64,000 bases of DNA from assembly GCA_039024555.1 (NCBI GenBank), contig JBCCQQ010000005.1, forward strand, positions 1 to 64,000, in the 5' to 3' direction. Numbering within the stretch: the stretch's first letter is position 1; each line of letters begins with the position of its first letter. This DNA comes from Cyanobacteria bacterium P01_D01_bin.156. Its GTDB lineage: Bacteria; Cyanobacteriota; Cyanobacteriia; Phormidesmidales; Phormidesmidaceae. The notes under the pieces are model-generated. The model worked only from the letters and a program-made list of their open reading frames with translations. It was not told the DNA's origin and searched no databases. This document shows, one piece after another, positions 1 through 26,177 of the stretch. The position numbers and the translations under genes are program-made.

Positions 1-174
1 ATGGATTCGAACCCATCATTCATCTGGTTGAGGGGACCTATGAGAAGGGCATTAAGGTACCGCCTGACGAGTTAGAACCGTACCAACAACAGTGGCAACG
101 ATCTGAGACATTACCCAAATGGGATATCAAAATTGTTCCAACCTGATGGGTATCTTATTTTTTAGCGAACCCCT
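1..174 (+). mobile_element. Right end of an ISAzo13-family insertion sequence (transposase C-terminus at 3..146 plus terminal repeat)
   Basis: Frame 3 reads GFEPIIHLVEGTYEKGIKVPPDELEPYQQQWQRSETLPKWDIKIVPT*, which resembles the DDE_Tnp_ISAZ013 C-terminus. It is followed by an end-like sequence GGTATCTTATTTTTTAGCGAACCCCT. Confidence 0.75.
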
Positions 175-175
175 T

Positions 176-379
176 ATGGAAGAATTGGCATTAGCGAGAG
201 ATATGGCGATAAGCTTGGGCGCTTCAATCACGGACAACGATGTTGGTTTTATTGCTTGCTTTGATTCTGAGGAAATAGCAAGCTCCTATGTGGAAAATGT
301 GAATGATACATGGGATGATGTTACGGCAGAAGATCAAGAAAAGTGCGCTGTTGTTGTGACAGTAGCTAGTCTTATGTAA
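176..379 (+). CDS. Small acidic hypothetical protein, possibly the 3' remnant of a gene interrupted by the IS
   Basis: Open frame directly after the IS end; no recognisable motif. Confidence 0.3.
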   Translation: MEELALARDMAISLGASITDNDVGFIACFDSEEIASSYVENVNDTWDDVTAEDQEKCAVVVTVASLM

Positions 380-828: not shown

Positions 829-1392
829 TTAAACATCAAAGCAAAATACTATCATTCGGCCTCGACGCTTCCAGTGTTTCTTGTCTTGAGGCATTGCTTT
901 TAAGGCATCGGCTTCTGATTTAAGAATGAATTGCATCTCTCCTGGAACGATAGTGCAATCGATGAATTCCCAAGAGCGGTCAATCCCAGCTGCCCGCTCT
1001 GCTTCAAAGTCAGTTAGGATTTCGCCGCATTTGATGGCACATCGGTGACGCAATATGGCTCTTTCCCAGGTTGCTGTGTAGTGGGGGTGTTTTTCGCTAT
1101 CTGCACCTAAACAGGTGGTTTGAAAAAATTTGGGTTGCTCGGTGGTGCCATGATTGAAGCCTAGAAATACGGTGACGACTTGAAAGTTACCGGCTGGGTC
1201 ATTGGCAACAAGTAAATTATTGCCGTCATTCATAAATGTGTGCCAGGTTGATTCGTCATTGCAGATGATAGGCTGCTGAGCTTGCAAGATATATCGCTGT
1301 AAATCTTTGGGATTATCTGACAATGCAGCCATAATCAGTGGTAGGGTGCGTGGCAACGCACCAACAACGTCATGCGCCATAAGGTTAGGCAT
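829..1392 (-). CDS. Hypothetical protein (true start probably downstream of the REP at ~1341-1362)
   Basis: 187-aa ORF with a VVTVFLGFNHG...PKFFQT...YTATWERA..RH motif. Confidence 0.55.
   Translation of the reverse strand: MPNLMAHDVVGALPRTLPLIMAALSDNPKDLQRYILQAQQPIICNDESTWHTFMNDGNNLLVANDPAGNFQVVTVFLGFNHGTTEQPKFFQTTCLGADSEKHPHYTATWERAILRHRCAIKCGEILTDFEAERAAGIDRSWEFIDCTIVPGEMQFILKSEADALKAMPQDKKHWKRRGRMIVFCFDV
1341..1362 (+). repeat. GTAG-type REP palindrome upstream of RAYT
   Basis: GTAG followed by the hairpin GGTGCGT-GGCA-ACGCACC. Confidence 0.75.
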
Positions 1393-1421
1393 TCTAGTCT
1401 AAATAATAAATCCAAATCAGG

Positions 1422-2073
1422 ATGCCTAACTACCGTCGTCCTTACATTCCTGGGGGTACATACTTTATCACTCAGGTTATGTATCAACGGGTGCCTTGGT
1501 TATGTCGTGATGTGGGACGTCAAGCACTCAGAGAAGCGATCATTACTGTCAAAAAGAGTCATCCATTTTCGGTGGATGCGATTGTTTTACTGCCGGAACA
1601 CTTTCATTGTTTGTTGACGCTACCTCCTGATGATGCGGATTTTTCAATTAGATTAAAGTTGATTAAAATCCATGTGACAAGGCATTATGGTTCGGTATTG
1701 AATATTAATTTGCCTGTTTCTCGATCACGACAAAAGCGAGGAGAACATAATCTTTGGCAACGACGGTATTGGGAACATTGGATTCGCGATGAGCGAGATT
1801 TTTCGACGCATTGTGATTATATTTAGCCGTTGCTGATTCAGAGCATATAGCGATCTGTCAATCCTGCTATGGAACGGTATTTTTCAGATAAACTCGTACC
1901 GAGGATCAGCAACGCCTATTTACCAAAATCCAGTACGTCATGGGTTGTGAGAGAAACCGCAGGATTGGAAGTATTCCAGTGTGCATCGATTTATTGCAGA
2001 GGGGATTTATCCTCCGAATTGGTGTCAAGAGGAGAGTCCGGTAGTTCCTCACGATGTTTGGGATAGGGTGTAG
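1422..2073 (+). pseudogene. REP-associated tyrosine transposase (RAYT, Y1 HUH), disrupted
   Basis: Shows MPNYRR..GGTYFIT, the HUH motif LPEHFHC and WQRRYWEHWIRDERD. The C-terminus YQNPVRHGL*EKPQDWKYSSVHRF..GIYP resumes at ~1921 after a 91-bp insertion and also contains an in-frame TGA. Confidence 0.9.
1826..1916. mobile_element. 91-bp MITE copy 1 (inside RAYT)
   Basis: Ends GCCGTTGCTGAT / ATCAGCAACGCC; flanked by TATTTA duplication (1820-1825, 1917-1922). Confidence 0.85.
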
Positions 2074-2161
2074 GGTGTGTGTAGCGAAGCGTAACGCACC
2101 GGGTTAGAGGATTTTGGAGTGGTTATAGCTCTTAGATGTGGCGCGTTGTCACGTCCCCTAC
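2070..2161. repeat. Inverted pair of GTAG-type REPs downstream of RAYT
   Basis: GTAGGGTGTGTGTAGCGAAGCGTAACGCACC (2070-2100) and, on the minus strand, GTAGGGGACGTGACAACGCGCC (2140-2161). Confidence 0.65.
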
Positions 2162-2168
2162 TGGCTCA

Positions 2169-5100
2169 TCACCTCCAATCACCTATTAAAACCCAAGTAG
2201 CCCAACTATTGGGATCAGGCCACTCTTCTATTGTTGCTAATTGTGCTAAACGGAGCGCTTCTAATTTTGTCATTTGTTGGGATGCTAATGATTCATAAAA
2301 TCTCGTCATGAGAAAGACTGTTCCTGCATCAGACACCTCTGATGCGCTTGCAATTACACGTCCAACGCCACTTTCAATCGAAGCACCAGCAAGTCCAAAT
2401 GGGTTACTTTTAGAATCTTCTGATGCTGCACAAGCGCTAAAAACTAGAAGATCAATGTTATCCCTAACATAATTACTATCTCTTAGAAACTCTATAAAAT
2501 CTTGAGCATAGAGAATTCCATCTGACGCAACCAGAAAGCCAGAACTGTAATCTTCCTGAAAAATACCATGAGTTGCTATGTGGACAATAGAACTTGGAAC
2601 TTCACTAAAAAACTGACGCAAAGAAGTTGTTGTAAAATCATTATTATAAAAAATATTAGAATTTGGCAAAAGGGCCTTAAGCGCACTTACCTCTTTTTCA
2701 ACGCCTAGGAGATTATCTAAGACTAACTGCCTCCCATCAAGATTATCAAATGATCTATCTTCAAAGCTAGAAATTGCAAAAATAGAAGCTGACAAGTCTG
2801 TTTCCTTTGGTGTGACAGCAGGCAAATATTGAAAATTTGGAAGTTGCGCTACTAAAAAATTCTCAATCAAATAAGTTCCTTCACTATCTTGTGCTGCAGC
2901 AAATGGTAAATGCCTTATATCTCCTAAAGAAGTAAAAATTAGTGTATCAACATAGGTTGGGAAATACTCTTCAACAGGTTTTATAAATAACTCATATATT
3001 AAAGGAGGAACTGGGTTTGATCTACCAACTTGTACTAGGCCGCCGGCCCGAGTACCTCCAGCAATAGCTCCTTGACTACTTTGGATTCTTATAATGTCTT
3101 CGGTTTTAGTCTCAGAACAATAAAATTTGATTTCGCCATCAGGGAAGCTGGCTATTACCGCAGTACTATTTTGCAAGACAATAGGATAAATAAATGCAGC
3201 TTTAGAGTCCCTTGAGTGTAGTTTTTCTAAATACCTCTTAAATGAATTGCCCTCCAATTCATTATCTATCTTGAAGGTTTGTATAGAATGTGTGAATTCA
3301 GCGCTTTCCATGCTTTTAAGAAATGCAAGCGCTGAAAAGACCTCTTCAGGCGATGCATTTTTACAGTTAGTGTTGGTGTTAATAAATTCTTTCTCAAAGA
3401 TAGATTGCTGAATAGTTTGTTCGGAAATATGCCTTTCTAAAGTAATCTTAATAGCCTCTTCAACGCTTTCTAAATCATCTTGAAGTTTACTCAAGCTATT
3501 AAAAGCATTTGCATAATGGGTTATGGATTCTGAATATAGTTTTTTTTGTCTAGCAATATCCCCCTTGACTGAAGAGGCATAAGCGACTAGAGCTTTCTCA
3601 TTTATTGATGGATTTTTAGAAAAAGCAAGCTTTTCAATTTCCTGAATTTCACGCTCTGCTTCTTGGCTATTGCCAAGTATCTCAAAGGCATAAGCTTTTT
3701 CTATGGTCAGTAGCTTTTTCTGGAGCTTTTTATCAGATATTTCAAAAGATAGCCCAACCTGTTCCCACACGCGGGATGATTGAGTACGAAATCCTTGCTC
3801 TAAGAGGATAGTTCCCATGTTGTTAAGCACAGATACCTGACCACTGACAGATTGAATATCCTCTAATTGGGCGGATGCTAATTCCAACGCTTGTTCAAAG
3901 AATTCAACTTGTCTTTTGGCTTCGTCAATTTCCTCTCTAGTGGCGGTTACGTTCTGTTCTGCTTCTGATAATCGGTTATTGGCCTCTGACAGATTTTTCT
4001 GAATTCCTTTGAATCGCTGATTTGCAGATTCTGCTTCTCGATTTGCTAGGTTTACTGCTCGGTTTGCGATCTCTGCTTTTTTGGAGGCTTCAGCTAATTC
4101 TTGGCGTTTTTCTTCTTGTTCTTGACGTGCTAGTTGTAAATCCTCATCTAGCTGTTTTTTTTCTTGAGTCAGTTTTTGTTTCTGATTTGCTAATTCATCC
4201 AACTCTTTCTGTGATTCTTTGATAAGAATAGAAGATTCTTCAATACGCTGCCTAGCAGCTCTTAATGCCTTTCCTGAAAAGATTGCAACACCTCCTAAAA
4301 CTGTAGAAAGTACCAAAGCCCCACTCAAAAATAGAGTACCACGACGTATTTTTTGCTGAGCTTGCTGATTAGCTTCTGCCTGAATCTGCTCTGCTGACTC
4401 CGCTGCCTCTCGGGCTGTCCGCTCCCATTCAAGTTCAGCTTCTTGCTCCCGTGCAGAAATTTCCTCTTCCCGAAGTTGGGTCCGACTAGCCGCCAGAAAC
4501 TCACGATCCTCCCCACTGAGGTTGATTTTCTCAGACGCCCATTCCTCAGCCTCTATCAGTGCTCTTCCCCGCAACAAACGAGAACTATCCGCCTTCCCAG
4601 ACACAACCCAGGCCCTAAAACTTTCTGCATAGGGTCGTAACTTCCTCAGCTCAGCATCAATCCAGGCTTCATCAAAAATAGCCCTATAGATCGGGTTATA
4701 CACCCGTAACTTGTTGCCTCGCTTCACCACCAAACCCGACAACTGTAACTCTCGTTCTTCAGGCTGATTGCTCGCCGCAATCTCTTCCGCCTGTCGAATC
4801 TGCCGATACAGCTCCAGCAAATACCCTGCTTTCCGCTCATCATCCAACAACCGTTGCCGAATCGTCTTTAAATGCTCCTGATGATCCTGAGTCTCCCAAC
4901 TATCAATCAGCCGTGCATTTACCAACCCATCAATCGCAACCGCTTTCCCACCTGCCGCAATCACCTCATCTGAGTCCACCACCAACTGACATAACCGCTG
5001 CGTCAAAAACGGCTGCCCCCCCGTCCATCGCAATATCTCTTGCAAAACCGTCTCTGGCTGCTCTGCTTTCCCCTGCAAACCAGCCGCTAGGGGCAACGCT

Positions 5101-5744
5101 TCCTCAAATGTAAACCCCTTTAAATCAATGCTTTCACCAACATTAAACGGAGTCCGCTTCGCATCCCCAATTAACTCCGACGGAGCCGCCACCCCCAACA
5201 ACGCAAAGGTCAGTTTCTGATAAGCAGGATTCTCCGCCCGTTTGTTATAACACCCCCGAATCAGCGCAAAAAAGTCATCAGTGAACGGCAAACTGAGGGT
5301 ACTATCAATTTCATCAATAAAAACAACAATCGGCTTCCCAATCCCTGGCAACAGAACAGTATCAATAAACTCTGCCAACCGCTCTACTGGAGCAATAAAA
5401 TCTCGCTCCTTTAGCCAGTTCCGAAACGCCTGCCGCTCCAGTAACCCAAACCGGCGATTTAACTGATTAATAATGCCGTCATACCATTGACCTGGCTTAT
5501 CAACCTGACTATCCTTCGCCGAAAAATCAATAATAATCCCAGCCCAACCATCTGCCTGTAGTTTAGCCAGGGTTCTCACCATCAGGCTGGTCTTCCCCAT
5601 CTGCCGAGAGTTCAGCACATAGCAAAACTCCCCCGCCTGCAGCGCCTCATACAGCTCAGTATCACTTTCCCGCGCTACATAGGACGGCACATCCTGCGGT
5701 AACGCCCCACCAACCTTATAAAACGGGGAATATGAACTACTCAT
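2169..5744 (-). CDS. AAA_35 (STAND-like P-loop NTPase) - TM helix - coiled coil - TPR-like helices - CHAT caspase-like protease
   Basis: N-terminus has YVARESD, Walker [10 protein letters not shown], Walker [16 protein letters not shown] and [10 protein letters not shown]. Middle has the hydrophobic span [20 protein letters not shown] and an E/Q/K heptad region. CHAT motifs are LPFAA, VHIATHG (His), LLVFSAC (Cys), VSDAGT..LMTRFY and [18 protein letters not shown]. Confidence 0.9.
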
Positions 5745-7282
5745 ACCGCCATCCTCAACCGCGAACGAAAATAAGGCCGATACAGAGGTTCATGACGCAG
5801 TATCACTCCATTACCCTGCAGATTCACCAACCCCATGCCATTGAGTTTAAAAGCCAGCATCGACTTCAGCTCCACCGGATGCTCAGACACAATCACTTGC
5901 TCAAATGCCTGGGCTAGCTCCGGGTGCTGCTGCAAATTCCACAGGTGCCGCCGCAAATGCTCCCCGTAAATCCCAGAATCCGTAGGCGCTTCTTTCAGCA
6001 ATTCTTCCAGCGTCAAATCCTGTTGCGCAATGTGATACAGCGCCAATCGCACCAGATAGGGATGTCCCCCCACCATAGCCATCAGGTCATCCACATCCGC
6101 TGCTGTCCAATTCAACCCATGCTTTTCCACCAGCTCCAACACCTGAGTCGCCGTAAACTCCGGTAGCTCCACCGCCAGACCCACATTAAACGGCGACACA
6201 TTGCTTTCTAAAACAATGTAAGACTCTGTCGAATGGGCAATGGCCAGCTTCAACTTGGCCCATGTAGCATCCACCTTCGCTTTCTCATTCCAGGACCGTA
6301 GCAGGGTTAAAAATTCCTTAGAGACTGTTTCATAGGGAAACAGACGATCTAATTCATCCAGACCCAAAAATAAGGATGTGTCAATCTTGGAGAGAATGTG
6401 CTCTTCAAAGTAGTCAGAGCAGTTTTCCTTCGGACCAAACAACTCCTCATCCCAAAACTCAGTTACCTTGCGGGGCGAGAACCCTAACTTTTTACTCACC
6501 AGCGCACACAGACGTTTCAAAAACAGGCTGGAGTCGGTAAACGTGCGCTCGTCTGTTTCTAAAAAATCTAGCGTCACCGTTCGATAGTTCAGTTCATCCG
6601 CCCGGTCTCGAATGCGAGCCAACAGTGACGTTTTACCCATCTGTCGCGGAGCCTTCACCCGCACCAGTCCGCCGCGATTTTCAATTTCTTGCAGACAACG
6701 GGTATCCCACGGTTCTCGCCGGATATAAAACGCAGACTCCAGCGGCATAGTGCCACCCGGCAGCTCCAGATCCGCCACAGGCAAAGGAGGACGCTGGTGT
6801 GCGGGAGGCGTCACTTCCTGCGGTTCATCATTTTCCACCGCTGCAGGTATCTGCCCAGAGCCAATTAGCGTCAGCATATTTTCCACCAGCTCGGGCGTAT
6901 CCGCAGACGTTTGCCACGACTTCTGTTGAATGGTCTGTAAAATGCTTCTCAACTCATAGTTAAGCGGGTCATCCAGGGGCAAGTTAAGTCGAATCGGCAA
7001 TATGGCAGGCTTACCCAGCTGATCCTTCAGTCGCTTAGCTGTGCGCACCTCCCCCGCCACCATGTCACTAGTCGCCGAGCGCTCCGACAGCAGCAGCACA
7101 AAGTAATCACACCGCTTCAGTTCTTGATCGATGCGGTCTACCCAGTTCTCGCCCCAGTCAAGACTTTCCGCCGCCATAAACACGGAATGCCCAGCAGTCG
7201 TCAAAGCTTGGTGCAATTCCTTAGCCAGATTCAAATCCGGTTCTGTAGTGCGATAGCTGATAAAAATCTGCCGCTTGACCAT
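5741..7282 (-). CDS. TIR domain - AAA_35 NTPase protein
   Basis: TIR part: IFISY..., [38 protein letters not shown]_35 part: [45 protein letters not shown]. Its stop overlaps the next start (ATGA). Confidence 0.9.
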
Positions 7283-7422: not shown

Positions 7423-8052
7423 TTACAAACTCCTCAGCCACTCCCTAAATTCCCTCACCAGCTCCAAATAATCTGTCTCCATCGCCCGCTGCAAAAACGT
7501 CTCTACAGCTTGAGCTTCTATCTGAGGAAACGCCAAACTGCGCTCCACCCGAACATAAGCCCCATCCTGCAACACCATTAACGTCAGACTTTGGCCATTA
7601 AACCGCCAAATTTCCGGTATCTTCAATGCACCATAGACCTGCTCCCGCTGCCGTGATCGGCTGGTAATATCAACTTCCACCACCAAATCTGGAGCTGGGT
7701 CTTGAGTTAAATCTATACGCTTTTTCCCACGTACTGCCGTTACCTTACTCACTGTCAGATAGAAACACTCATCCGGTTCCGAGCCGCTTTCTAAATCTTC
7801 TCGTTCTAACGTGGTTGACCCCAATGGATAAAGTGTTACTACAAATTCTTCTGCCAGAGTCTCTACAAAGCGACCCATTACTTTTTTAAAGTACTTATGC
7901 TCTGGCGAAGGAGCCATGATTTCCAGCACTCCTCGATGATATGTGAGCCTTAGGTTACGGTTGTCTAGTTCAGCCTTAATACGCTGATATGTGTCCCAAG
8001 TAATACCTGAGAGATTTACTCGCTGTTCTAGCTGTGGTGGTGCGCTAACCAT
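7423..8052 (-). CDS. Uma2 family putative restriction endonuclease
   Basis: ITWDTY, LEIMAPSPEH, EPDECFY, PDLVVEVDITS, YGALKIPEIWRF. Confidence 0.9.
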   Translation of the reverse strand: MVSAPPQLEQRVNLSGITWDTYQRIKAELDNRNLRLTYHRGVLEIMAPSPEHKYFKKVMGRFVETLAEEFVVTLYPLGSTTLEREDLESGSEPDECFYLTVSKVTAVRGKKRIDLTQDPAPDLVVEVDITSRSRQREQVYGALKIPEIWRFNGQSLTLMVLQDGAYVRVERSLAFPQIEAQAVETFLQRAMETDYLELVREFREWLRSL

Positions 8053-16168: not shown

Positions 16169-18394
16169 GTGGCTTTGAATCAGCAATTTGCGCAGCAAAA
16201 CGATCATCAGGACTTAGTGGGCTTCATCTGGAGTATTGCCGATAAGCTGAGGGGGCCTTACCGTCCACCCCAATATCGACGGGTGATGCTACCGCTGATC
16301 ATATTGCGCCGATTGGACTGTGTGCTGGAACCGACGAAGCAAGCGGTATTGAAGACAAAGGAAAAGTTTGAAGCAAAGGGGATCGAAGGGGTTGCCCTGG
16401 AGAAAGCGCTATCTAAGATTGCGATCGGAGCAGAGCGCACTCAACCCTTGTATAACACCAGCGAATTTACATTTCGCAAGTTGCTGGATGATGCACCGGG
16501 CATTGCCAGTAATTTGGTGTCCTATATCAATGGTTTTTCGCCCCGTGCCCGTGACATTTTTGAGAAGTTTGAATTTGAGAATGAAATTCAGAAGCTCGAC
16601 GAAAATAATCGCCTGTTTCTGATTATCAAGGAGTTTTGCAGCCCTCAGATTAATCTATCCCCTGAGAACCTTAGTTCGATGGATATGGGCTATGTCTTTG
16701 AGGAGCTGGTTCGTAAGTTTAATGAGCAAGCGAACGAAGAAGCGGGGGATCACTTTACGCCCCGTGAGGTGATTCGCCTGATGGTAAGTCTAATGTTTAG
16801 CGACGAGGACGAGGTCTTTCAGGCTGGCATCTATAAGAGTATTTACGATCCTGCCGTTGGCACTGGCGGTATGCTGTCAGAATCAGAGAGGCATATCAAG
16901 GCCCAGAACCCAGATGCCAATCTGGAGCTGTTCGGTCAGGAATATAATCCTGAAGCCTACGCCATCTGTTGTTCAGACCTACTGATCAAGGACGCCCCCA
17001 TCAACAATCTAATTTTTGGTGACACCCTGGGGTTAAAGGGGGCCAAAAATCGGGCTAATAACTTTGTGCCCCATGATGGCCATGGCGATAAGCAGTTTCA
17101 CTACATGCTTGCTAATCCACCGTTTGGGGTGGAATGGAAGCCTGAGAAGGATTTTGTCGAGGAAGAACATAAAGAGCAGGGCTTTAGCGGACGCTTTGGA
17201 GCTGGGTTACCCAGAATTAATGATGGGTCATTGCTGTTTCTGCAGCATATGATTTCAAAGATGCGTCCGGTGTCTGAGGACGGTGGGGAAGGTTCTAAAA
17301 TCGCCATCGTCTTTAACGGCTCACCTCTGTTTACGGGGGATGCAGGCAGTGGGGAAAGCAATATTCGCCGCTGGATCATTGAGAATGACTGGCTGGCTGC
17401 GGTGGTGGCTCTGCCCGACCAGATGTTTTACAACACGGGCATTTATACCTACATCTGGCTGGTAACCAACAAGAAGCCATCCCATCGTCAGGGCAAGGTG
17501 CAGCTGATTGACGGCACCCGCCATTTTCAAAAAATGAAAAAAAGTCTCGGGAATAAGCGCCATGAGTTATCTCCTGAGCATATTCAGGAACTGGTTAGTC
17601 TGTATGGAGAATGTCAGCACGATGCCACCAGTGAGGTGTTGGTAGAGGGCAAGAAGGAAACGCGCATCTGCTCAAAGGTCTTTGATAATCGGGAATTTGG
17701 CTTTTTGAAAATGACGGTGGATCGGCCTTTACGGCTTAATTTTCAGGCCAGCCCGGAGCGAATTGCCATCATCTGGGAGCAAACAGCCTTTGTGAATCTG
17801 GCGAAAAGCAAAAAGCGTAAGGATAAAAAGACGGCTGAAGCAGAAGTAAAAGCTGGCAAAGAACTGCAGCAGGCGATTATCCGTGTGCTTAAGTCACTGG
17901 ATGAGAGTCCGGTTTACAAAGCGCGACCCGACTTTCTGAAAGTGCTGGATGCTGCCGTCAAAAAGGCTGGTATTAAGCTGGCGGCTTCAGTCAAGAAGGC
18001 GGTTCTGGCTGCTTTGAGTGAAACAGATCCTACGGCTGAGATTTGTCGGGATAAACAGGGTAACCCCGAGCCGGATAGCAATTTGCGGGATACGGAAATT
18101 GTGCCGTTGCCGGAGGATATTGAGCTGCCGTTGCCGTTGGGGTATGACGGGGAAACGGGCCATGGTGATTTGCTGGCATTGGTGGAAGACCACTGTGAGG
18201 AGTATCTCAAGGTAGAAGTATTGCCCCATGTGCCCGATGCTTGGATGGACCATAGTAAGACCAAGGTGGGTTATGAGATACCGTTGAATCGTCATTTTTA
18301 TGTGTATCAGCCACCCCGACCGCTGAGCGACATTGAGGATGATATTAAGGCCCTGGAAAAGGACATTGTGAAAATGTTAGGGGACATTGTGTAG
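16169..18394 (+). CDS. hsdM: Type I restriction-modification methyltransferase subunit M
   Basis: IWSIADKLRG, AGDHFTPREV, YDPAVGTGGM, ANPPF (N6-adenine), KVGYEIPLNRHFY. Confidence 0.97.
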   Translation: MALNQQFAQQNDHQDLVGFIWSIADKLRGPYRPPQYRRVMLPLIILRRLDCVLEPTKQAVLKTKEKFEAKGIEGVALEKALSKIAIGAERTQPLYNTSEFTFRKLLDDAPGIASNLVSYINGFSPRARDIFEKFEFENEIQKLDENNRLFLIIKEFCSPQINLSPENLSSMDMGYVFEELVRKFNEQANEEAGDHFTPREVIRLMVSLMFSDEDEVFQAGIYKSIYDPAVGTGGMLSESERHIKAQNPDANLELFGQEYNPEAYAICCSDLLIKDAPINNLIFGDTLGLKGAKNRANNFVPHDGHGDKQFHYMLANPPFGVEWKPEKDFVEEEHKEQGFSGRFGAGLPRINDGSLLFLQHMISKMRPVSEDGGEGSKIAIVFNGSPLFTGDAGSGESNIRRWIIENDWLAAVVALPDQMFYNTGIYTYIWLVTNKKPSHRQGKVQLIDGTRHFQKMKKSLGNKRHELSPEHIQELVSLYGECQHDATSEVLVEGKKETRICSKVFDNREFGFLKMTVDRPLRLNFQASPERIAIIWEQTAFVNLAKSKKRKDKKTAEAEVKAGKELQQAIIRVLKSLDESPVYKARPDFLKVLDAAVKKAGIKLAASVKKAVLAALSETDPTAEICRDKQGNPEPDSNLRDTEIVPLPEDIELPLPLGYDGETGHGDLLALVEDHCEEYLKVEVLPHVPDAWMDHSKTKVGYEIPLNRHFYVYQPPRPLSDIEDDIKALEKDIVKMLGDIV

Positions 18395-19425
18395 TGAGTG
18401 AGAATCTCCCCGAATCAACAGCACTGATCAATGAGATTCGGCAGCTGATCAAAGAGGCTCGCTCTGCTGCCTATGCAGCCGTTAATGCAGGGTTGACAAT
18501 GCTTCATTGGCAGATAGGAAGACGCATTTGTACGGAAACGCTGAAGCAAGAACGTGCAGACTACGGTACTCAAATTGTTAAACGTTTGGCCGTTCAGCTG
18601 CAGCAAGAGTTTGGACGTGGATTTTCGGAAAAAAATCTGCGTCGCATGATTCAGTTTTATGAGGCTTTTCCTGAAGAGGCAATTGTCGTATCACTGATAC
18701 GACAATTAAGCTGGACCCATTTTATTGCGTTGATTCCTCTAAAACAGCCGCTACAGCGTGAGTTTTATGCGGAGATGTGTCGGGTGGAGCGGTGGAGCGT
18801 GCGGATGCTGCGCAAAAAGATTGATTCGATGCTGTACGAGCGGACGGCGCTATCGAAGCAGCCGGAGGAACTAGCCAAGGCGGAACTGCAGGCCCTGCGG
18901 GAAAACAATACCCTATCGCCCGACCTGGTTTTCAAAGATCCCTACGTGTTGGATTTTCTAGGATTAAAGGATCGTTACCTAGAAAAAGATCTTGAAGATG
19001 CCATTTTGCGCGAGATGGAGGCATTTTTGTTGGAGTTGGGGGATGGGTTTGCTTTCCTGGCCCGACAAAAGCGGATTCAGATTGATAGTGATGACTTTTA
19101 TATTGATCTGTTGTTTTACCATCGCAAGCTCAAGCGGTTGATTGCGGTTGATTTAAAGTTGGGAGACTTTAAGGCGGAGTACAAGGGGCAGATGGAGCTG
19201 TATCTGCGCTGGCTCAATCGCTATGACCGTCAGCCCGATGAGGAACCGCCGTTGGGGATTATTTTGTGTGCTGGCAAGAAACAGGAACAGATTGAACTGT
19301 TGGAGTTGGACCAGTCGGGGATTCATGTGGCGGAGTATTTGACGATATTGCCACCGAAGGAAGTGTTACAACAGAAGCTCCATGCGGCGATAGAGCAGGC
19401 TAAACAACGGTTAGGAGGTGAGTAA
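18394..19425 (+). CDS. YhcG/DUF1016 PD-(D/E)XK nuclease-domain protein
   Basis: FGRGFSEKNL, LSWTHF, KDPYVLDFL, FYIDLLFYHRKL, GQMELYL. Confidence 0.93.
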   Translation: MSENLPESTALINEIRQLIKEARSAAYAAVNAGLTMLHWQIGRRICTETLKQERADYGTQIVKRLAVQLQQEFGRGFSEKNLRRMIQFYEAFPEEAIVVSLIRQLSWTHFIALIPLKQPLQREFYAEMCRVERWSVRMLRKKIDSMLYERTALSKQPEELAKAELQALRENNTLSPDLVFKDPYVLDFLGLKDRYLEKDLEDAILREMEAFLLELGDGFAFLARQKRIQIDSDDFYIDLLFYHRKLKRLIAVDLKLGDFKAEYKGQMELYLRWLNRYDRQPDEEPPLGIILCAGKKQEQIELLELDQSGIHVAEYLTILPPKEVLQQKLHAAIEQAKQRLGGE

Positions 19426-19484
19426 TGGCGAGAGATTTAACAGCAGCAGCATTGGATCGGCAGAATATTCTTAATAATTGCTAG
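19425..19484 (+). pseudogene. 5' stub (19 aa) of a truncated cargo gene
   Basis: GGAGGTG RBS and TAATG coupling, then MARDLTAAALDRQNILNNC*. Confidence 0.5.
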
Positions 19485-19517
19485 CTTCTACAATAAATAT
19501 ATAGGAGTTAAACCAAT

Positions 19518-19808
19518 ATGGTCATGGATACTAACAGTCAGACCAAGCCCTTAGCTGTAAGCTTTACACTGGATGTGGTAAATATTTCTGATCAGTTGCA
19601 GGCAAAGGCACTGGCAAAGGCCCGAGAAGCCTATGTAATGGTTTTACTAGCAGACGGTGAAATTAGCAGTGGGAAAGCCGCCAGTTTATTAGGAATGTCT
19701 CGATTGGATATGCTCAATCACATGGAGGCATGGGGTATTTCTATCTTTGATGATTCTCTTAGCGCAGATGCATTACAACAGCAGGTTGAGCAGGCAAGTA
19801 ATCCTTGA
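19518..19808 (+). CDS. UPF0175 family protein (antitoxin-like)
   Basis: GEISSGKAASLLGMSR...GI. Confidence 0.8.
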   Translation: MVMDTNSQTKPLAVSFTLDVVNISDQLQAKALAKAREAYVMVLLADGEISSGKAASLLGMSRLDMLNHMEAWGISIFDDSLSADALQQQVEQASNP

Positions 19809-20070
19809 TGTGATGGCAGAACGGGCAGGTGGCCATATGAAGCTTATCAATCAGCAAGATGATAACTGTCTACCGGCGGACTACTAGGAGTTAAAGAATC
19901 GGCCAGCATTTACCGATGCCCCTGTGCCGTCTACGCTATCTGATGGCGATTGACATCAGGCCTGGGTATCACTCCAGGCAGAGTTTGGAGCCTATTATCA
20001 TGGAGGTGTTTAGACGATTAGCAAAGTGTTAGAGATATTTGTGAGATGGCTGTTGAGTTAGGAGGCTCAT

Positions 20071-20313
20071 ATGAATAGTCTGACTCTAGAAAGAATCACG
20101 ATAGATCCAGATATTTGTCATGGTAAGCCTTGCATTCGTGGGCTGCGCTATTCGGTGGAGTTTTTGTTAGAGCTGTTAAGTTCTGGGATGACCCATGCTG
20201 AGATTTTAGAAGATTATGATGATTTAGAAGAAGCTGATATTTTATCGGCATTGTTGTTTGCGGCTCAGCTTAGTCAGGTAAAAAGTGTATATAAACTGGC
20301 AATTGGCAAGTAA
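20071..20313 (+). CDS. DUF433 family protein (antitoxin-like)
   Basis: RITIDPDICHGKPCIRGLR...EILEDYDDL. Confidence 0.92.
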   Translation: MNSLTLERITIDPDICHGKPCIRGLRYSVEFLLELLSSGMTHAEILEDYDDLEEADILSALLFAAQLSQVKSVYKLAIGK

Positions 20314-20363
20314 CAGTCTTCTATCTTTATTGATGAGGTCGCACTGATGGGGGAGAGTATCTG

Positions 20364-21713
20364 ATGGGAGGATATTTAGCCTATACAGAATATAGGGATT
20401 CTGGAGTTGAGTGGTTGGGAGATATCCCTTCTCGCTGGAAAGCTATAAGACTAGCCTTTCTTACAGACAAGATTGGAGATGGTATTCATGCAACACCTAA
20501 ATATGTAGAAAAATCCTCCTATCACTTTATCAATGGCAATAATTTGGTCAATGGTCGTATTTATATTGATGAATCTACAAAATGTGTTGGCAAAAATGAG
20601 TTTGACGTATACAACCTGAAATTGAGTCAAAACACTTTACTTTTGTCCATCAACGGCACTATTGGAAACGTAGCTTACTATAACAACGAGAGCGTCGTAC
20701 TGGGGAAAAGTGCAGCATATATTAGTTGCAAGGTAGTTCTCTCAAGATTTTTTCTGTATTTTTTCCTAAATTCTTCATCAGCCAGAAACTATTTCTTTTT
20801 TGAAGTCACTGGAACAACAATTTTCAATCTGTCATTGAAATCACTCAAAAATCTATTTATTCCTCTTCCTACTCTCGCTGAACAACAACAAATCGCAGCC
20901 TTCCTCGACTACAAGACCGCCCAGATTGACGCGCTGATTGCAAAAAAAGAAGCCCTGCTCGAAAAGCTGGCAGAAAAGCGCACGGCCCTTATCAGTCAGG
21001 CCGTCACCAAAGGACTCGACCCCACCGTCCCCATGAAGGACTCCGGCATCGAGTGGCTAGACGAAATTCCCGAGCATTGGGAAATCAAAAGACAGCGATT
21101 CCTTTTCGAGATGACTGGAGGAAGCACTCCGAGTAAAAATAACCCTGACTTTTGGGACGGTGATATTCCTTGGGTTTCCCCAAAAGATATGAAGCGACCT
21201 AGATTAGATGGGTCTATTGATCGATTGTCGCAGGAAGCTCTTGAGCAAACATCAATTCATCTTCATTCTAGTGGCAAGGTTCTCATCGTTGTTCGGGGCA
21301 TGATTCTGGCACACACATTTCCAGTTGCAGTTAATGATGTTCAAGTGACTGTCAATCAGGATATGAAGGTTCTGGATACGACACTAAATCCAGAATATCT
21401 GGCAATTCTACTAAGAGGAATTTCAAGCCTTGTGCTTAGTATCGTCGAGGAATCTGCTCACGGAACTAAAGTACTTCGAACAGATCTATTCAAGAATATT
21501 TTTATCCCTGTTCCCCCTTTCCTTGAGCAAGAGAACATTGTCAAGTACGTCAAAGATGTCACTGATGAAACTGACAAGATGATCGGGTTTATCACAGCAG
21601 CGGTCAAACGTCTCAAGGAATATCGCACTGCCCTCGTTACTAACGCTGTCACCGGCAAAATTGACGTGCGTGACATCAAGCTCCCCGGAACTAAACCCGT
21701 CACAGTTAACTAG
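20364..21713 (+). CDS. hsdS: Type I RM specificity subunit S
   Basis: Repeated DSGVEWLGDIP / DSGIEWLDEIP, LPTLAEQQQI and PPFLEQENIV; two target-recognition domains. The stop position appears to be ~21711-21713. Confidence 0.96.
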   Translation: MGGYLAYTEYRDSGVEWLGDIPSRWKAIRLAFLTDKIGDGIHATPKYVEKSSYHFINGNNLVNGRIYIDESTKCVGKNEFDVYNLKLSQNTLLLSINGTIGNVAYYNNESVVLGKSAAYISCKVVLSRFFLYFFLNSSSARNYFFFEVTGTTIFNLSLKSLKNLFIPLPTLAEQQQIAAFLDYKTAQIDALIAKKEALLEKLAEKRTALISQAVTKGLDPTVPMKDSGIEWLDEIPEHWEIKRQRFLFEMTGGSTPSKNNPDFWDGDIPWVSPKDMKRPRLDGSIDRLSQEALEQTSIHLHSSGKVLIVVRGMILAHTFPVAVNDVQVTVNQDMKVLDTTLNPEYLAILLRGISSLVLSIVEESAHGTKVLRTDLFKNIFIPVPPFLEQENIVKYVKDVTDETDKMIGFITAAVKRLKEYRTALVTNAVTGKIDVRDIKLPGTKPVTVN

Positions 21714-21747
21714 GCATCTCATTCTTGAAATCTACTTAATATTCAAT

Positions 21748-22593
21748 ATGAAAAAAGCTATTGCCACTTTTTTTTCGCTAGGCGTGATTTCTATAGTAGT
21801 GCTCACTGCCTTAGGCTATTACTACTGTTGGGATTGGGTAGGTGTCAGCAACTACACGCCGCCTAAAACAAATCAAGTTCAAGAATGCCAGCGAACAAAA
21901 ACGTTGTGGGACTGGATGGAGCTTTTAATAGTTCCAGTCACTCTTTCTGGAGGTGCATGGCTTATCAGTGAGCGTCAGAAAGCAAGTGACGAAAAGCAGG
22001 CAAATGAGCGTAGAAAACAAGTAGACTATGAGTCATATTTATCAAGAATATCGAAAATTCTTGATAAATATCCTAATGCGAGAACGCTTGAAGAGTCTGG
22101 TTTTGATAAGTCTACAATAAGAGCCTGGACATTAGTTGTACTCAGGCGTCTGGACCCAGCAAGGAAAGGCGATATTATCCAGTATCTATATGAGACTGAT
22201 CTCATTTCTACAGATTATTGCCTTGTTGATCTTCAGGAAGCAGATTTGTCTGGTGCCGATCTGGAAAATCGTTTTCTACCAGGTATCGATTTAAGCCGAA
22301 GTATTTTGACGGGAGCTAATTTGAAAGGAGTCGTGCTTGGCGGGGAGTTTCTAATTGAGGGAGCTGAGCCAAGTGAACCGTTATCCAAAGGCAAATTAAA
22401 TAGTTCAAATCTCGCAGGAGTGGATTTGACTGAAGCAGACTTAACCGGTGCCAGATTGGGAGGTGTAAATCTCAAAAAAGTAGTCTGGAAGCAAGCTGTG
22501 CTCAAGGGCGCAAATCTCAAGGGTGCTCAGGTAGATGATGTGCAGGCACTCAAGAAAGAAGCAAAAGTTGACTGTAAAACTGTATTCCCCTAA
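21748..22593 (+). CDS. Membrane-anchored pentapeptide repeat protein
   Basis: N-terminal hydrophobic spans, KTLWDWMELLIVP, and C-terminal A(D/N)LXX repeats. Confidence 0.85.
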   Translation: MKKAIATFFSLGVISIVVLTALGYYYCWDWVGVSNYTPPKTNQVQECQRTKTLWDWMELLIVPVTLSGGAWLISERQKASDEKQANERRKQVDYESYLSRISKILDKYPNARTLEESGFDKSTIRAWTLVVLRRLDPARKGDIIQYLYETDLISTDYCLVDLQEADLSGADLENRFLPGIDLSRSILTGANLKGVVLGGEFLIEGAEPSEPLSKGKLNSSNLAGVDLTEADLTGARLGGVNLKKVVWKQAVLKGANLKGAQVDDVQALKKEAKVDCKTVFP

Positions 22594-23000
22594 TCGTGCT
22601 TCATCGTTTGTGGCTTACAAAGGTTGTTTACCTTAGATAAGAAAATCCATGTGTAAGGTTATCGACCTCAGCCTTACATGTGAGCAATCAACCAGCCGTT
22701 TCAGTCATGTTTAATGGACTAGCCTAGGATGCGCGTTAACACTACGGTTTATTTGATCAGCAAACGCCTCCAGCCTCTGAATTTATTGAAAGCCTTGTGA
22801 AGCAAGGATTCCCTATTTGATGGTTATTTGATCGAGGGGGCGATCACCTATGCTCTACTCCTGAACATGGCAGTTCTTTGGCAAAAGTTAAAGTTCCGGA
22901 AGGAACCTGAATTTAACTGGTAATGCCTGTAGGGGCATACATAAACTAAATTTGATGCAGCTAGAGCAGCGATTCAGGCCAGAAAGTCAGGAATGCCCCT

Positions 23001-26000
23001 ATGCATAAGGAAATCAACTTTGAAGATGCCATCGAGCAGGTGCTGACCTCCGAGGGGGGCTACACCCAGGGCAATCCTAACGACTACGATCCTGATTGCG
23101 CCCTCTTCCCCAGAGATGTCATCACCTTTGTCCAGGACACCCAGCCCAAATTCTGGCAGCGGTTAGTCGACCTCAACAAAGACAAGGCCGATACTGTCCT
23201 GCTCGATAGCCTGGTCAAAGAACTCCACAGCAAAGGCATGCTCACCGTGCTGCGCCAGGGCTTCAAATGCTTTGGCAAGACCGTAAAGATGGCCTATTTC
23301 GAGCCCAATACCGGCATGAACCCCGAGGCCTTTACCCGCTACGAGCAAAACCGCCTCACCATCACCCGCCAGGTCACCACCACCACCGGAGCCATCCCCG
23401 ACATCGTCCTGGCCATCAACGGCCTACCCATCGCCACCCTGGAACTCAAAAACGCCATGAGTAGCGAAACAACCTATAAAAATGCAGAAAAGCAATATCG
23501 GGATCGAGATCCCAAGGAGCTGCTGTTTGCCTTTAAACAGCGCTGCCTGGTCCACTTTGCAGTGGATACCGACCAAGTTTCCATGACCACCAAGCTCGAC
23601 GGCAAAAGCACCTATTTCCTCCCCTTTAACCGGGGCGACAACCACGGGGCAGGCAACCCAGCCGTTGACGGCGACTACCGCACCAGCTACCTGTGGAATG
23701 AAACCCTCAGCCGTCGAAGCCTGCTAGATATCCTGGCTCGATTCCTGCACCTGGAAATCAAGGAAAAGACCATCGCCACAGAAAAAGGACTCAAACGCAC
23801 CCGCAAAGAAACCCTGATCTTCCCTAGGTATCACCAGCTCGATGTGGTGCGTAAGCTAATTGACCACGCCTGGGCCAACAGTTCCGGTCACAATTATCTA
23901 ATCCAACATTCCGCCGGGTCCGGTAAATCCAACTCCATTGCCTGGCTCGCCCATCGTCTGGCCAACCTCCACGATGCGGAGGATACCAAGATTTTCCATT
24001 CTGTCATTGTTATCACCGACCGCCGCGTTCTCGATCAACAGCTGCAAAACACCATCTATCAATTCGAGCATAAACAGGGTGTAGTACAAAAAATTGACCA
24101 AGATACCCAGCAGTTGGCTAAGTCCCTATCCGATGGTGTACCCATCATCATCACTACCATCCAGAAATTTCCCTTTATTGCCCAGGCTATCCAAACCCTG
24201 GAGAAGAAAGGCCAAACTCTTGACCTATCTACGGCAGGTAAACGCTTTGCCGTCATCGTAGACGAGGCCCACAGTTCCCAAAGTGGAGAAACCGCCATGG
24301 AGCTGCGTAAAGTACTCAACAAAGACGGGATTGAAAGTGTTATTGCCTCCCAGCTCATCGACCTGGAAGACGAAGCCCTTAGCGACGAGGCTAAACAAAA
24401 CCTGATCCGCGAGCAGCAAAAGCGAGCCAAACAACCTAACCTCAGCTTCTTCGCCTTTACCGCCACACCCAAGTTCAAAACCAAAGTCTTTTTTGACGAA
24501 CCCGGCGAAGATGGCCAATCTCCATTCCACCTCTACAGCATGCGCCAGGCCATCGAAGAAAAATTCATCATGGACGTGCTGGAGAACTACACCTGCTACA
24601 AGCGCTACTACGAGCTTGTCCAGGCCGCTGTCAATGATCCAGAAGTGCCCCGTCGTAAAGCCGCCCGTGCCCTAGCCCGATTTGTTGATCTGCACCCCTA
24701 CAACATTGCCCAGAAGGTCGAAATTATGGTGGAGCACTTTCGTAAAAATACTTTCCACAAAATCGGCGGCAGGGCCAAGGCTATGGTGGTCACCAACTCC
24801 CGAGAACATGTGGTGCGCTATAAACTGGCCTTTGACAAATATATTCAAGAGAAAGGCTACAAAGACATTAAAACCCTGGTCGCCTTCACCGGAGACATCA
24901 CCCTTGAGGACCTACCCGACGAGAAATATACCGAAGTCGGCATGAACAGGGGCATCAAGGAAAAGGAACTGCCCAAAAAGTTTGATACCGAAGAATACCA
25001 AATCCTACTGGTGGCCGAAAAGTACCAAACCGGCTTCGATCAGCCCCTATTGCATACCATGTATGTCGATAAACGCCTCTCCGGTATCCAAGCTGTCCAA
25101 ACCCTGTCCCGTCTTAATCGCACCACCCCGGGCAAAACAGATACCTTTGTACTCGACTTCGTCAACGAACCGGAAGATATCTACGCCGCCTTTAAGCCCT
25201 ATTACGAAACCACCCCCATCGGTGAGCAATCAGACCCCCAACAGCTCAATGACCTCTCCCACCGTCTATTCCAATGGCAGGTCTTTTACCCAGAGGACAT
25301 CAACGACTGGTGCGAAGTCTGGTTCCGCAACCGCATGAGCCCCACCGGAGGCGAGCACAAGAAACTCAACAGCATTCTCGATCGGGTGGTCAATCGTTAC
25401 ACAGCCCTGGAAGAAGAAGAACAGGCCCTATTCAAAAGCCAGCTCGTCAGCTTTCGCAATCTGTATCTATTCCTTTCCCAAGTCATTCCCTATCAGGACT
25501 CTGACTTAGAAAAACTCTACACCTTTGGCCGTTATCTACTGACCAAGCTACCCCGCCATCAGGACAGCCCCACTGTCAGAATCGATGACGAAGTAGCCCT
25601 GAAATACTACCGCCTCGAAAAAATCAGTGAGGGCAGCATCAATCTAAAAACAGGCGAAGCTGAAGCCCTCTACGGTCCCCGCGAAGTCGGCACAGGACAA
25701 GCTGAAGACTCTGTCCAACTCTCTACCCTGGTGGAAAAGCTCAATGAACGCTTTGGCACTGAATTCACCCTGGCCGATCAGCTATTTTTTGATCAGGTGC
25801 GCGAAACCGCCGTCGCCAATGAGCAAATCCGTCAGGCCGCCACCGTCAATTCTGCCGAAAACTTCGAACCCGTCTTTGGCAAACTCCTAGAAAACCTCTT
25901 TATCGAGCGCATGGAAGGCAACGAGGAGATATTTACCCGACTAATGAACGATGATGACTTTCGTCAGGAAGCTGCCAACGCTCTGATGTGGGACGTTTAT

Positions 26001-26024
26001 AATCAGATCAGAAAAAACATTTAA
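23001..26024 (+). CDS. hsdR: Type I RM endonuclease subunit R
   Basis: PDIVLAINGLPIATLELKN, QHSAGSGKS, VDEAHSSQ, FTATPK, QTGFDQP, QTLSRLNR. Confidence 0.97.
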   Translation: MHKEINFEDAIEQVLTSEGGYTQGNPNDYDPDCALFPRDVITFVQDTQPKFWQRLVDLNKDKADTVLLDSLVKELHSKGMLTVLRQGFKCFGKTVKMAYFEPNTGMNPEAFTRYEQNRLTITRQVTTTTGAIPDIVLAINGLPIATLELKNAMSSETTYKNAEKQYRDRDPKELLFAFKQRCLVHFAVDTDQVSMTTKLDGKSTYFLPFNRGDNHGAGNPAVDGDYRTSYLWNETLSRRSLLDILARFLHLEIKEKTIATEKGLKRTRKETLIFPRYHQLDVVRKLIDHAWANSSGHNYLIQHSAGSGKSNSIAWLAHRLANLHDAEDTKIFHSVIVITDRRVLDQQLQNTIYQFEHKQGVVQKIDQDTQQLAKSLSDGVPIIITTIQKFPFIAQAIQTLEKKGQTLDLSTAGKRFAVIVDEAHSSQSGETAMELRKVLNKDGIESVIASQLIDLEDEALSDEAKQNLIREQQKRAKQPNLSFFAFTATPKFKTKVFFDEPGEDGQSPFHLYSMRQAIEEKFIMDVLENYTCYKRYYELVQAAVNDPEVPRRKAARALARFVDLHPYNIAQKVEIMVEHFRKNTFHKIGGRAKAMVVTNSREHVVRYKLAFDKYIQEKGYKDIKTLVAFTGDITLEDLPDEKYTEVGMNRGIKEKELPKKFDTEEYQILLVAEKYQTGFDQPLLHTMYVDKRLSGIQAVQTLSRLNRTTPGKTDTFVLDFVNEPEDIYAAFKPYYETTPIGEQSDPQQLNDLSHRLFQWQVFYPEDINDWCEVWFRNRMSPTGGEHKKLNSILDRVVNRYTALEEEEQALFKSQLVSFRNLYLFLSQVIPYQDSDLEKLYTFGRYLLTKLPRHQDSPTVRIDDEVALKYYRLEKISEGSINLKTGEAEALYGPREVGTGQAEDSVQLSTLVEKLNERFGTEFTLADQLFFDQVRETAVANEQIRQAATVNSAENFEPVFGKLLENLFIERMEGNEEIFTRLMNDDDFRQEAANALMWDVYNQIRKNI

Positions 26025-26103
26025 TAATGCTCATACGCGCTTGGATGTTTGTTATGTAGCCTTGCAAACAGACCAATACATTCAAGAAACCAAAATTTTG
26101 AAA

Positions 26104-26177
26104 TGGACGTACGCCGACTCGAACGGCGGACCTCATCGATGTCAACGATGCGCTCTAACCAACTGAGCTATACGTCC
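26104..26177 (-). tRNA. trnV: tRNA-Val(GAC)
   Basis: Reverse complement GGACGTATAGCTCAGTTGGTTAGAGCGCATCGTTGACATCGATGAGGTCCGCCGTTCGAGTCGGCGTACGTCCA folds as a cloverleaf with anticodon GAC; CCA is not encoded. Confidence 0.96.

Follow-up and report, generated by a model that had tools for sequence, protein, structure and literature searches.

Do the two overlapping genes near the start of cyanobacterial contig JBCCQQ010000005.1 encode a device with two effectors, or a receptor that divides sensing and output between two proteins? The window, that is, the whole stretch of 64,000 nucleotides analyzed here (positions 1 to 64,000 of the contig, from Cyanobacteria bacterium P01_D01_bin.156), carries on its minus strand gene A, encoding a TIR domain followed by an AAA_35 STAND-like NTPase (type A), and gene B, encoding a second AAA_35 NTPase (type B) followed by a predicted transmembrane (TM) helix, a coiled coil, TPR-like helices, and a CHAT protease domain (Table 1). 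The initial annotation took the CHAT and TIR domains for two effectors coupled across the membrane. We propose a membrane-spanning sensor/helper pair of STAND NTPases, with the CHAT domain as the input (bait or substrate trap) and the TIR as the output, a reading to which we give about an even chance.

Pairing of two STAND-like NTPases

Both genes carry an AAA_35 NTPase, as had been annotated, since each product passed the curated Pfam cutoff (PF14516, 27 bits): the domain of A scored 437.7 bits (E value, 2.7e-131), and that of B, 23% identical to it, scored 113.4 bits (E value, 1.3e-32). The Walker A lysine was found in all sequences compared, 54/54 for A and 54/54 for B, and the Walker B aspartate was likewise invariant (54/54 in A and in B), with the glutamate next to it present in 52/54 sequences of A and 54/54 of B. 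The Walker B letters of the two NTPases are LDELD and IDEID. The first glycine of the P-loop is substituted in both, by alanine in A and mostly by asparagine in B, and the P-loop core, the Walker A lysine, and the Walker B Asp-Glu pair expected of STAND proteins are present in both. The structure model of A contains a domain of helices plus a winged helix at the C terminus, in a fold like that of solved STAND proteins, the best matches being RPP1, PAB2304, SSO1545, and Avs3; the template modeling scores, by target, were 0.62 for the archaeal ATPase PAB2304 (2qen) and 0.61 for the archaeal ATPase SSO1545 (2fna). A search of solved structures by sequence gave TIR matches only and no relative of the NTPase.

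The TIR at the N terminus of A has a glutamate at the catalytic position, in agreement with the initial annotation: E78 (in VAGEV) aligns with the glutamate of solved TIRs and is kept in 32/38 aligned relatives. By this residue the domain qualifies as a candidate TIR NADase, with activity predicted. Some relatives of A (L017:513-791, L018, L019, L022, and L024) have, ahead of the TIR, a helical domain of about 80 amino acids (aa) with no Pfam match, which we take to resemble an effector-associated adaptor.

Translational coupling of the two genes is supported by the ATGA overlap of the A stop and the B start. The genome of this bacterium has 13 AAA_35 matches, amounting to six A/B neighbor pairs and one fragment; four pairs have A and then B, one has B and then A, and one is convergent. 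The NTPase of A is present in 78 of the 79 loci fetched with gene A. Of the 70 loci with room, 56 have B behind A at a distance of no more than 1.5 kb. Starting from B, A was in front in 33 of 57 metagenome and viral loci with room. One natural single chain (P0282) has the order trypsin-TIR-A-B.

Hetero-association of the two NTPases, as put forward in the initial annotation, is supported by this fusion and by a complex model with an ipSAE score of 0.72, compared to 0.01 for the best of three controls; the mark used for such scores was reached by 116/157 solved pairs and by 2/215 mismatched pairs. Contact agreement in the complex runs was at least 91%, and the partner pLDDT was 86. A head-to-tail AAA+ contact fits because the interface lists include the invariant R329 of A, together with its SPFN loop, and P-loop and Walker B residues of B (T52, D73, and D144). 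Contact between A and B is predicted by the model, and a larger ring may be built on it. In 54 pairs, the distances of A were correlated with those of B (rho, 0.74), a relation that shared ancestry alone could yield.

Domains and variability at the C-terminal end of B

The annotated order of TM helix, coiled coil, TPR-like helices, and CHAT in B was borne out by one strongly hydrophobic 19-mer (Kyte-Doolittle value, 2.20), by heptads, and by a structure model (pLDDT, 78.5) in which helical hairpins precede a CHAT fold. The CHAT domain matched Pfam with an E value of 1.5e-40, and in a fold search with the outer half of B, the Craspase protein Csx29 came out on top and DdvA of Myxococcus xanthus ranked fifth. 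The dyad reported for the window copy is intact (H1059 and C1105, in IATHG and FSAC). In some B proteins (P0120, P0121, P0122, P0134, P0140, and others), the B-type NTPase module is present two or three times in tandem, or parts of it are repeated.

A hydrophobic helix was present in 97 of the 120 closest B relatives, and in 90 of these 97 the N-terminal side was the more positive (the mean net charge is +3.2 ahead of the helix and +0.5 behind it). It was found in 27/28 fusions of B with CHAT (one is partial) and in forms of B with PBP or CHASE2 domains; three of the four GAF forms checked scored below 1.6 and are without the helix, the fourth scored 1.80 with acidic flanks, and one WD40 form is without the helix. 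A signal-like segment starts 30/39 stand-alone TPR-CHAT relatives. The hydrophobic helix, the charge bias of the family, and the domains found in this position support the earlier placement of the CHAT beyond the membrane, and the head of B is likely outside the cytoplasm, in the periplasm or the thylakoid lumen.

The A/B pair is a single instance of a generic modular cassette that occurs widely. Of the 401 genomes of the class searched, with two candidates scored per genome, 221 have a B-type match. Such a match was also found in 67 plasmid records, and none was found in GenBank phages. A Pfam scan of 128 end fragments identified CHAT, trypsin, cyclase, kinase, and helix-turn-helix (HTH) domains in front of A and, behind B, GUN4 (in 13 loci), WD40, GAF, PBP, CHASE2, and CHAT (in one). 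Judged by domain content, the N terminus of A is shown to be an output slot and the C terminus of B an input or sensor slot. Since relatives fill the C terminus of B with input domains, the CHAT of the window sits in the sensor slot. The ends of the 120 closest B relatives, counted by eye, comprise about 85 GUN4 and 2 CHAT domains, and the metagenome scan and the search of the 401 genomes gave no further CHAT fusion locus. One locus (L020) has an intact CHAT on A plus a drifted CHAT on B.

Other occurrences of the cassette include one IMG/VR contig (L199) with TIR-A plus B and, on plasmid alpha of Nostoc PCC 7120, an AAA_35 pair (WP_010999744.1 and WP_010999745.1) whose genes share the 4-base overlap of the window pair (L118; NC_003276.1, 188717-193578). 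B-CHASE2 genes adjoin stand-alone TPR-CHAT genes at L138, L181, L182, and L188 and in the genome of this bacterium (G000, C50 14117-20100). Such adjacency could be how the fusion came about, and it hints that what the pair reads is an exported CHAT/CHASE2 system.

The outer end of B diverges fast. Window B is 85 to 96% identical to its nearest relatives over aa 1 to 400 and less than 40% identical (mostly 17 to 28%) after aa 500; the likeness of the DNA ends at the TM helix, beyond which the GC content of third codon positions (GC3) is 0.16-0.37, compared to about 0.5 before it, and a GC drop after the helix is common to the GUN4 relatives. Pairs with at least 75% NTPase identity were compared by their median identities in the NTPase and in the last 300 aa. 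The medians were 82% and 30% for GUN4-type pairs (37 pairs), a drop to which unequal tail lengths contribute, 86% and 90% for GAF pairs (n = 15), and 96.5% and 96.5% for WD40 pairs (n = 6, all very close). On the NTPase tree, three CHAT forms stand at three places, each next to GUN4 forms, and a single CHAT clade was rejected (approximately unbiased test; P = 1e-5), as was the grouping of the window copy with L020 (P = 0.002). Tip and NTPase are thus incongruent, and recombination behind the TM-coding segment, which is conserved, appears to have exchanged the tip.

A profile search and the list of relatives gave 29 fusions of B with CHAT, of which 28 were counted (P0284, with an incomplete CHAT, was dropped). 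Both His and Cys are present in 9/28, the window copy included, and His-Gly plus Cys is present in 4/28; His or Cys has been lost in 19/28. The dyad is intact in 39/39 stand-alone relatives, in 33/33 other CHATs of the same genome, and in 10/10 A-slot CHATs. On a CHAT tree (FastTree, dyad columns removed), the fusions fall into at least four subclades amid intact nonfusion CHATs, each with losses. As far as sequence comparison goes, capture of the CHAT and then loss of its dyad are shown for several lineages, and a CHAT in the B slot is usually a putative pseudoprotease. The two-effector device of the initial annotation is not supported, given these losses, the intact A-slot CHATs, and the sensors that occupy the same slot in relatives.

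Proposed function, alternatives, and known systems

In the mechanism that we propose, B would be anchored with its N terminus inside and its C terminus outside, the stalk and the TPR-CHAT head facing the periplasm or possibly the thylakoid lumen. The head would serve as bait or as a substrate trap that binds a protein ligand of variable kind, and cleavage would be unneeded in most members of the family. Ligand binding may cluster or tilt the coiled coil and helix, freeing the NTPase of B, and A and B would assemble head to tail through the predicted contact, possibly into a larger ring. Clustered TIRs, behaving like those of TIR-containing nucleotide-binding leucine-rich repeat (NLR) proteins, would use up NAD+ or make a nucleotide signal, and the cell would be arrested or killed and the filament protected. 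More tentatively, and with some doubt on our part, filamentous cyanobacteria might have such membrane-spanning paired NLRs, fitted with integrated decoys: their own exported caspase-like proteases, repeatedly grafted onto a sensor NTPase, would lose the active site by decay and serve in the periplasm to bait proteins of phages or competitors, whose capture would fire the partner TIR inside the cell.

Several points weigh against this proposal. The topology of B was deduced from hydropathy and the family charge bias only, the charges flanking the helix of window B are equal (+2/+2), and GUN4, a porphyrin-binding domain known from the cytoplasm, is a poor fit to an outside position. The catalytic-position glutamate is missing in 6/38 aligned relatives of the TIR. 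The control set for the complex model was without A-A, B-B, and cross-paralog pairs, and close cousins pass such a test; an upstream partner was identified for 2/28 CHAT fusions. The stand-alone CHATs were found with an intact query, only the top 150 matches were covered, and the Fisher values for the dyad counts (3e-10 and 2e-9) are overstated, since the counted sequences share kinship. PADLOC and NCBIfam gave no good NTPase match, only TIR and coiled-coil matches and a weak 59-aa P-loop. Versions with GAF, HTH, cyclase, or CHASE2 domains resemble ordinary signaling, and no recurring defense system was found among 144 neighbor ORFs of the 26 closest loci, a survey with no background control. 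Finally, five of the seven fusions in the weakly supported subgroup of the window copy keep both dyad residues, and the window copy, with its H-G and C, may be an active protease.

If it were active, ligand-triggered self-cleavage of the stalk in trans, as proposed for DdvA, or cleavage of a periplasmic target could free the NTPase of B or provide a second output, as in the two-effector device of the initial annotation. We regard this as unlikely, even with H1059-G and C1105 and the dyads of the subgroup in its favor. The outer half of B does match Csx29 and DdvA in fold, and DdvA, whose dyad is intact, has been proposed to cleave itself, whereas no DdvA autoproteolysis was seen upon Mx4 infection (PMC11506125). 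An active protease is also hard to reconcile with the residue losses in 19/28 fusions, with the nearest relatives, in which GUN4 fills this slot and the A partner is the same, and with the window CHAT having the longest branch of 67 (2.07).

We infer a defense role for the pair. When 144 of the 159 neighbor ORFs of the 26 closest loci were scanned, transposases, toxin-antitoxin genes, plasmid genes, and a few NLR-like genes were found, and plasmid or integrative and conjugative element genes lie near the pair at L019, L021, L030, and L033. The lack of a recurring defense neighbor at these loci would also suit a general transmembrane signaling system (for kin recognition, envelope state, or development) that reads exported TPR-CHAT or CHASE2 proteins, the TIR being a maker of a regulatory nucleotide or an adaptor. 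The GAF, PBP, CHASE2, HTH, cyclase, and kinase domains of the family, its presence in more than half of the genomes of the class, and the B-CHASE2 genes next to stand-alone CHAT genes (4/81 loci and the same genome) point the same way. Such a role is nevertheless rather improbable for this subfamily, in which the tip is hypervariable and the neighborhoods shift, whereas GAF and WD40 tips are conserved, and in whose close clade the A-slot domains are TIR and intact CHAT; kin recognition, moreover, would use the same mechanism as the sensor/helper pair. That the window copy is a recent, nonfunctional chimera in a transposase-rich spot with a decaying CHAT end is very improbable: GC3 is low past the helix, the CHAT branch is the longest, and broken copies occur at L022, L025, L027, L034, L035, and L039, but the 1191-aa frame is open with all motifs present, 27 other full fusions of several origins exist, and the GUN4 relatives also have low GC past the helix.

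As a sensor/helper pair, A/B would resemble a paired NLR and DdvA in its way of working, and it is a member of neither group. Plant paired NLRs are made up of a linked sensor and helper, the sensor carrying a captured and often inactive host domain; they are cytoplasmic and belong to another STAND clade, and their likeness to A/B is one of analogy only. DdvA, of the DdvA-DdvS pair of M. xanthus, is a single-pass anti-sigma factor; its periplasmic TPR-CHAT, a placement that the head of B may share, is proposed to respond to a phage signal and turn on the defense of a CBASS-CRISPR island, and its self-cleavage was proposed and not seen (PMC11506125). The inside part of DdvA is a zinc anti-sigma domain, with transcription as the output through an extracytoplasmic function sigma partner, whereas that of B is a STAND NTPase with a TIR-AAA_35 partner; DdvA keeps its dyad, while most B-CHAT relatives have lost theirs, and B has a coiled-coil stalk. 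Membership in the DdvA type of anti-sigma factors was rejected on account of the AAA_35 N terminus of B and the TIR-AAA_35 partner.

The nSTAND2 two-gene system resembles A/B in being a mobile operon with two STAND modules and a predicted hetero-multimer (PMC8195603). It differs in having one of its NTPases eroded and in using GT4 or HEPN effectors, whereas A and B both keep the lysine and the Asp-Glu pair and B has a predicted helix; with Lys and Asp invariant in both and no GT4 or HEPN domain in the 128 end fragments or the window annotation, assignment to nSTAND2 was rejected. Avs and bNACHT proteins share the effector-NTPase-sensor logic, TIR and caspase effectors, and GUN4 as a cyanobacterial sensor (PMC13581612; 10.1101/2022.07.19.500537). 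They are single chains, and those tested sense phage proteins in the cell, whereas A/B is split and its sensor is predicted to lie outside. The bNACHT Walker B signature D[GAS]hDE is absent from both NTPases, and membership in Avs/bNACHT was also rejected because effector, NTPase, and sensor are spread over two genes and no library model matched well. The TPR-CHAT protein Csx29 is cytoplasmic and bound to Cas7-11, whereas the annotated ORFs flanking A/B include no cas gene. In Thoeris, including its TIR-caspase type, a TIR signal activates a cytoplasmic effector. A CHAT on the outside, as predicted for B, could not receive a signal of this type, and the matches to ThsB and ThcB4 were weak, limited to the TIR, and far below the cutoff.

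The A/B cassette probably belongs to the Npun2340/2341 family of MNS-clade STAND NTPases, reportedly defined by Leipe et al. in 2004. This family is named in PMC8195603. In the literature searched, mostly without subscription papers, no description of the A/B pair was found, which together with the PADLOC and NCBIfam scans agrees with the initial view that the pair matches no characterized system. The papers found on the AAA_35 family, as far as their available parts extend, include no functional test and no description of the pairing, slots, topology, or CHAT capture. The searched supplements of PMC13581612 contain no "AAA_35," "pfam14516," or "Npun," its clade tables probably being in other supplement files, and that study may have classed this clade.

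New here are the CHAT in the sensor slot of B, the repeated capture of CHAT with loss of the dyad, and the fast-diverging outer tip. In the cited parts of the literature, the bacterial NLR-like sensors that have been tested respond to invaders within the cell. If the pair is a two-NTPase receptor reading the periplasm by way of a tip that is exchanged and evolves fast, bacterial immunity would gain a further compartment as well as a division of labor between sensor and helper, and a host protease repeatedly captured and inactivated would be a counterpart to the integrated decoys of plants. The family is large, and the pair on plasmid alpha of Nostoc PCC 7120 makes direct testing possible.

Flanks and genomic context

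The coordinates of the genes, their domains, and the flanking features are collected in Table 1.

Table 1. Features of the A/B locus and its surroundings in the window
Feature	Position	Strand	Remarks
Gene A (P0002, 513 aa): TIR plus type A AAA_35 STAND-like NTPase, winged-helix end	5741..7282	-	Predicted output/helper subunit
TIR domain (Pfam TIR_2), aa 6-121	6920..7267	-	Glu78 codon 7049-7051
AAA_35 of A, aa 175-506	5765..6760	-	[22 protein letters not shown] (R329), SPFNVG, GGHP
ATGA overlap, A stop/B start	5741..5744	-	Plus-strand bases TCAT
Gene B (P0001, 1191 aa): type B AAA_35, TM, coiled coil, TPR-like helices, CHAT	2169..5744	-	Predicted membrane sensor subunit
AAA_35 of B, aa 13-358	4671..5708	-	[26 protein letters not shown]
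Predicted single TM helix, aa 471-489	4278..4334	-	Hydropathy
Predicted coiled-coil stalk, aa 495-635	3840..4262	-	Heptad pattern
TPR-like helical head, about aa 640-845	3210..3827	-	Related to segment before GUN4 in relatives
CHAT domain, aa 916-1189	2178..2999	-	His1059 codon 2568-2570, Cys1105 codon 2430-2432
Flank: Uma2 gene	7423..8052	-	
Flank: interrupted Y1 (RAYT-type) transposase between GTAG-type hairpins	1341..2100 (ORF 1422-1826)	+	
Insert of about 100 bp, inverted repeat, inside Y1 transposase	1824-1926		
Type I restriction-modification genes (HsdM, HsdS, HsdR), YhcG/DUF1016 gene, pentapeptide membrane protein	16169-26177		Beside tRNA-Val

The initial annotation had placed the pair in a tRNA island with type I restriction-modification (RM) genes, an argument that is not supported because the tRNA and the RM genes are distant and a transporter block lies between. 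The sole tRNA of the window is a tRNA-Val at 26104, 19 kb off and adjoining the RM genes (16.2 to 26.0 kb), and an amidohydrolase/ABC transporter block (8.2 to 15.9 kb) parts both from the pair. The tRNA-linked island of the window is thus the type I RM region and not the A/B pair. T-loop-like letters at window positions 1 to 15 fall in an open frame that runs into a multicopy element and is read as an insertion sequence end.

A conserved housekeeping locus was ruled out, since the neighbors vary among relatives, the nearest of which are in Leptothoe/Leptolyngbya-type filamentous cyanobacteria. The pair is flanked directly by the Uma2 gene, which is not conserved in relatives, on one side and by the interrupted Y1 transposase with its hairpins on the other. 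Promoter and terminator scans were at or below chance.

The interrupted Y1 transposase piece recurs behind B in six relatives, and a Y1 transposase or remnant lies behind B in 9/26 closest loci; the genome of this bacterium has six matches in 6.6 Mb. In these nine loci (L014, L016, L023, L025, L027, L035, L020, L021, and L029) the RAYT/IS200-type transposase is convergent and just behind B, and two metagenome loci (L125 and L127) also have a Y1 transposase there; GTAG-type hairpins are often present. The transposase could be a second homology arm for tip exchange or the marker of an insertion hot spot.

Two further ORFs of the window, at 829-1392 (minus strand) and 119-379 (plus strand), are without a Pfam or NCBIfam match, and copies of the first occur on contigs C98 and C34. 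The insert of about 100 bp inside the Y1 transposase has 14-nucleotide inverted ends, and copies about 75% alike occur on many contigs.

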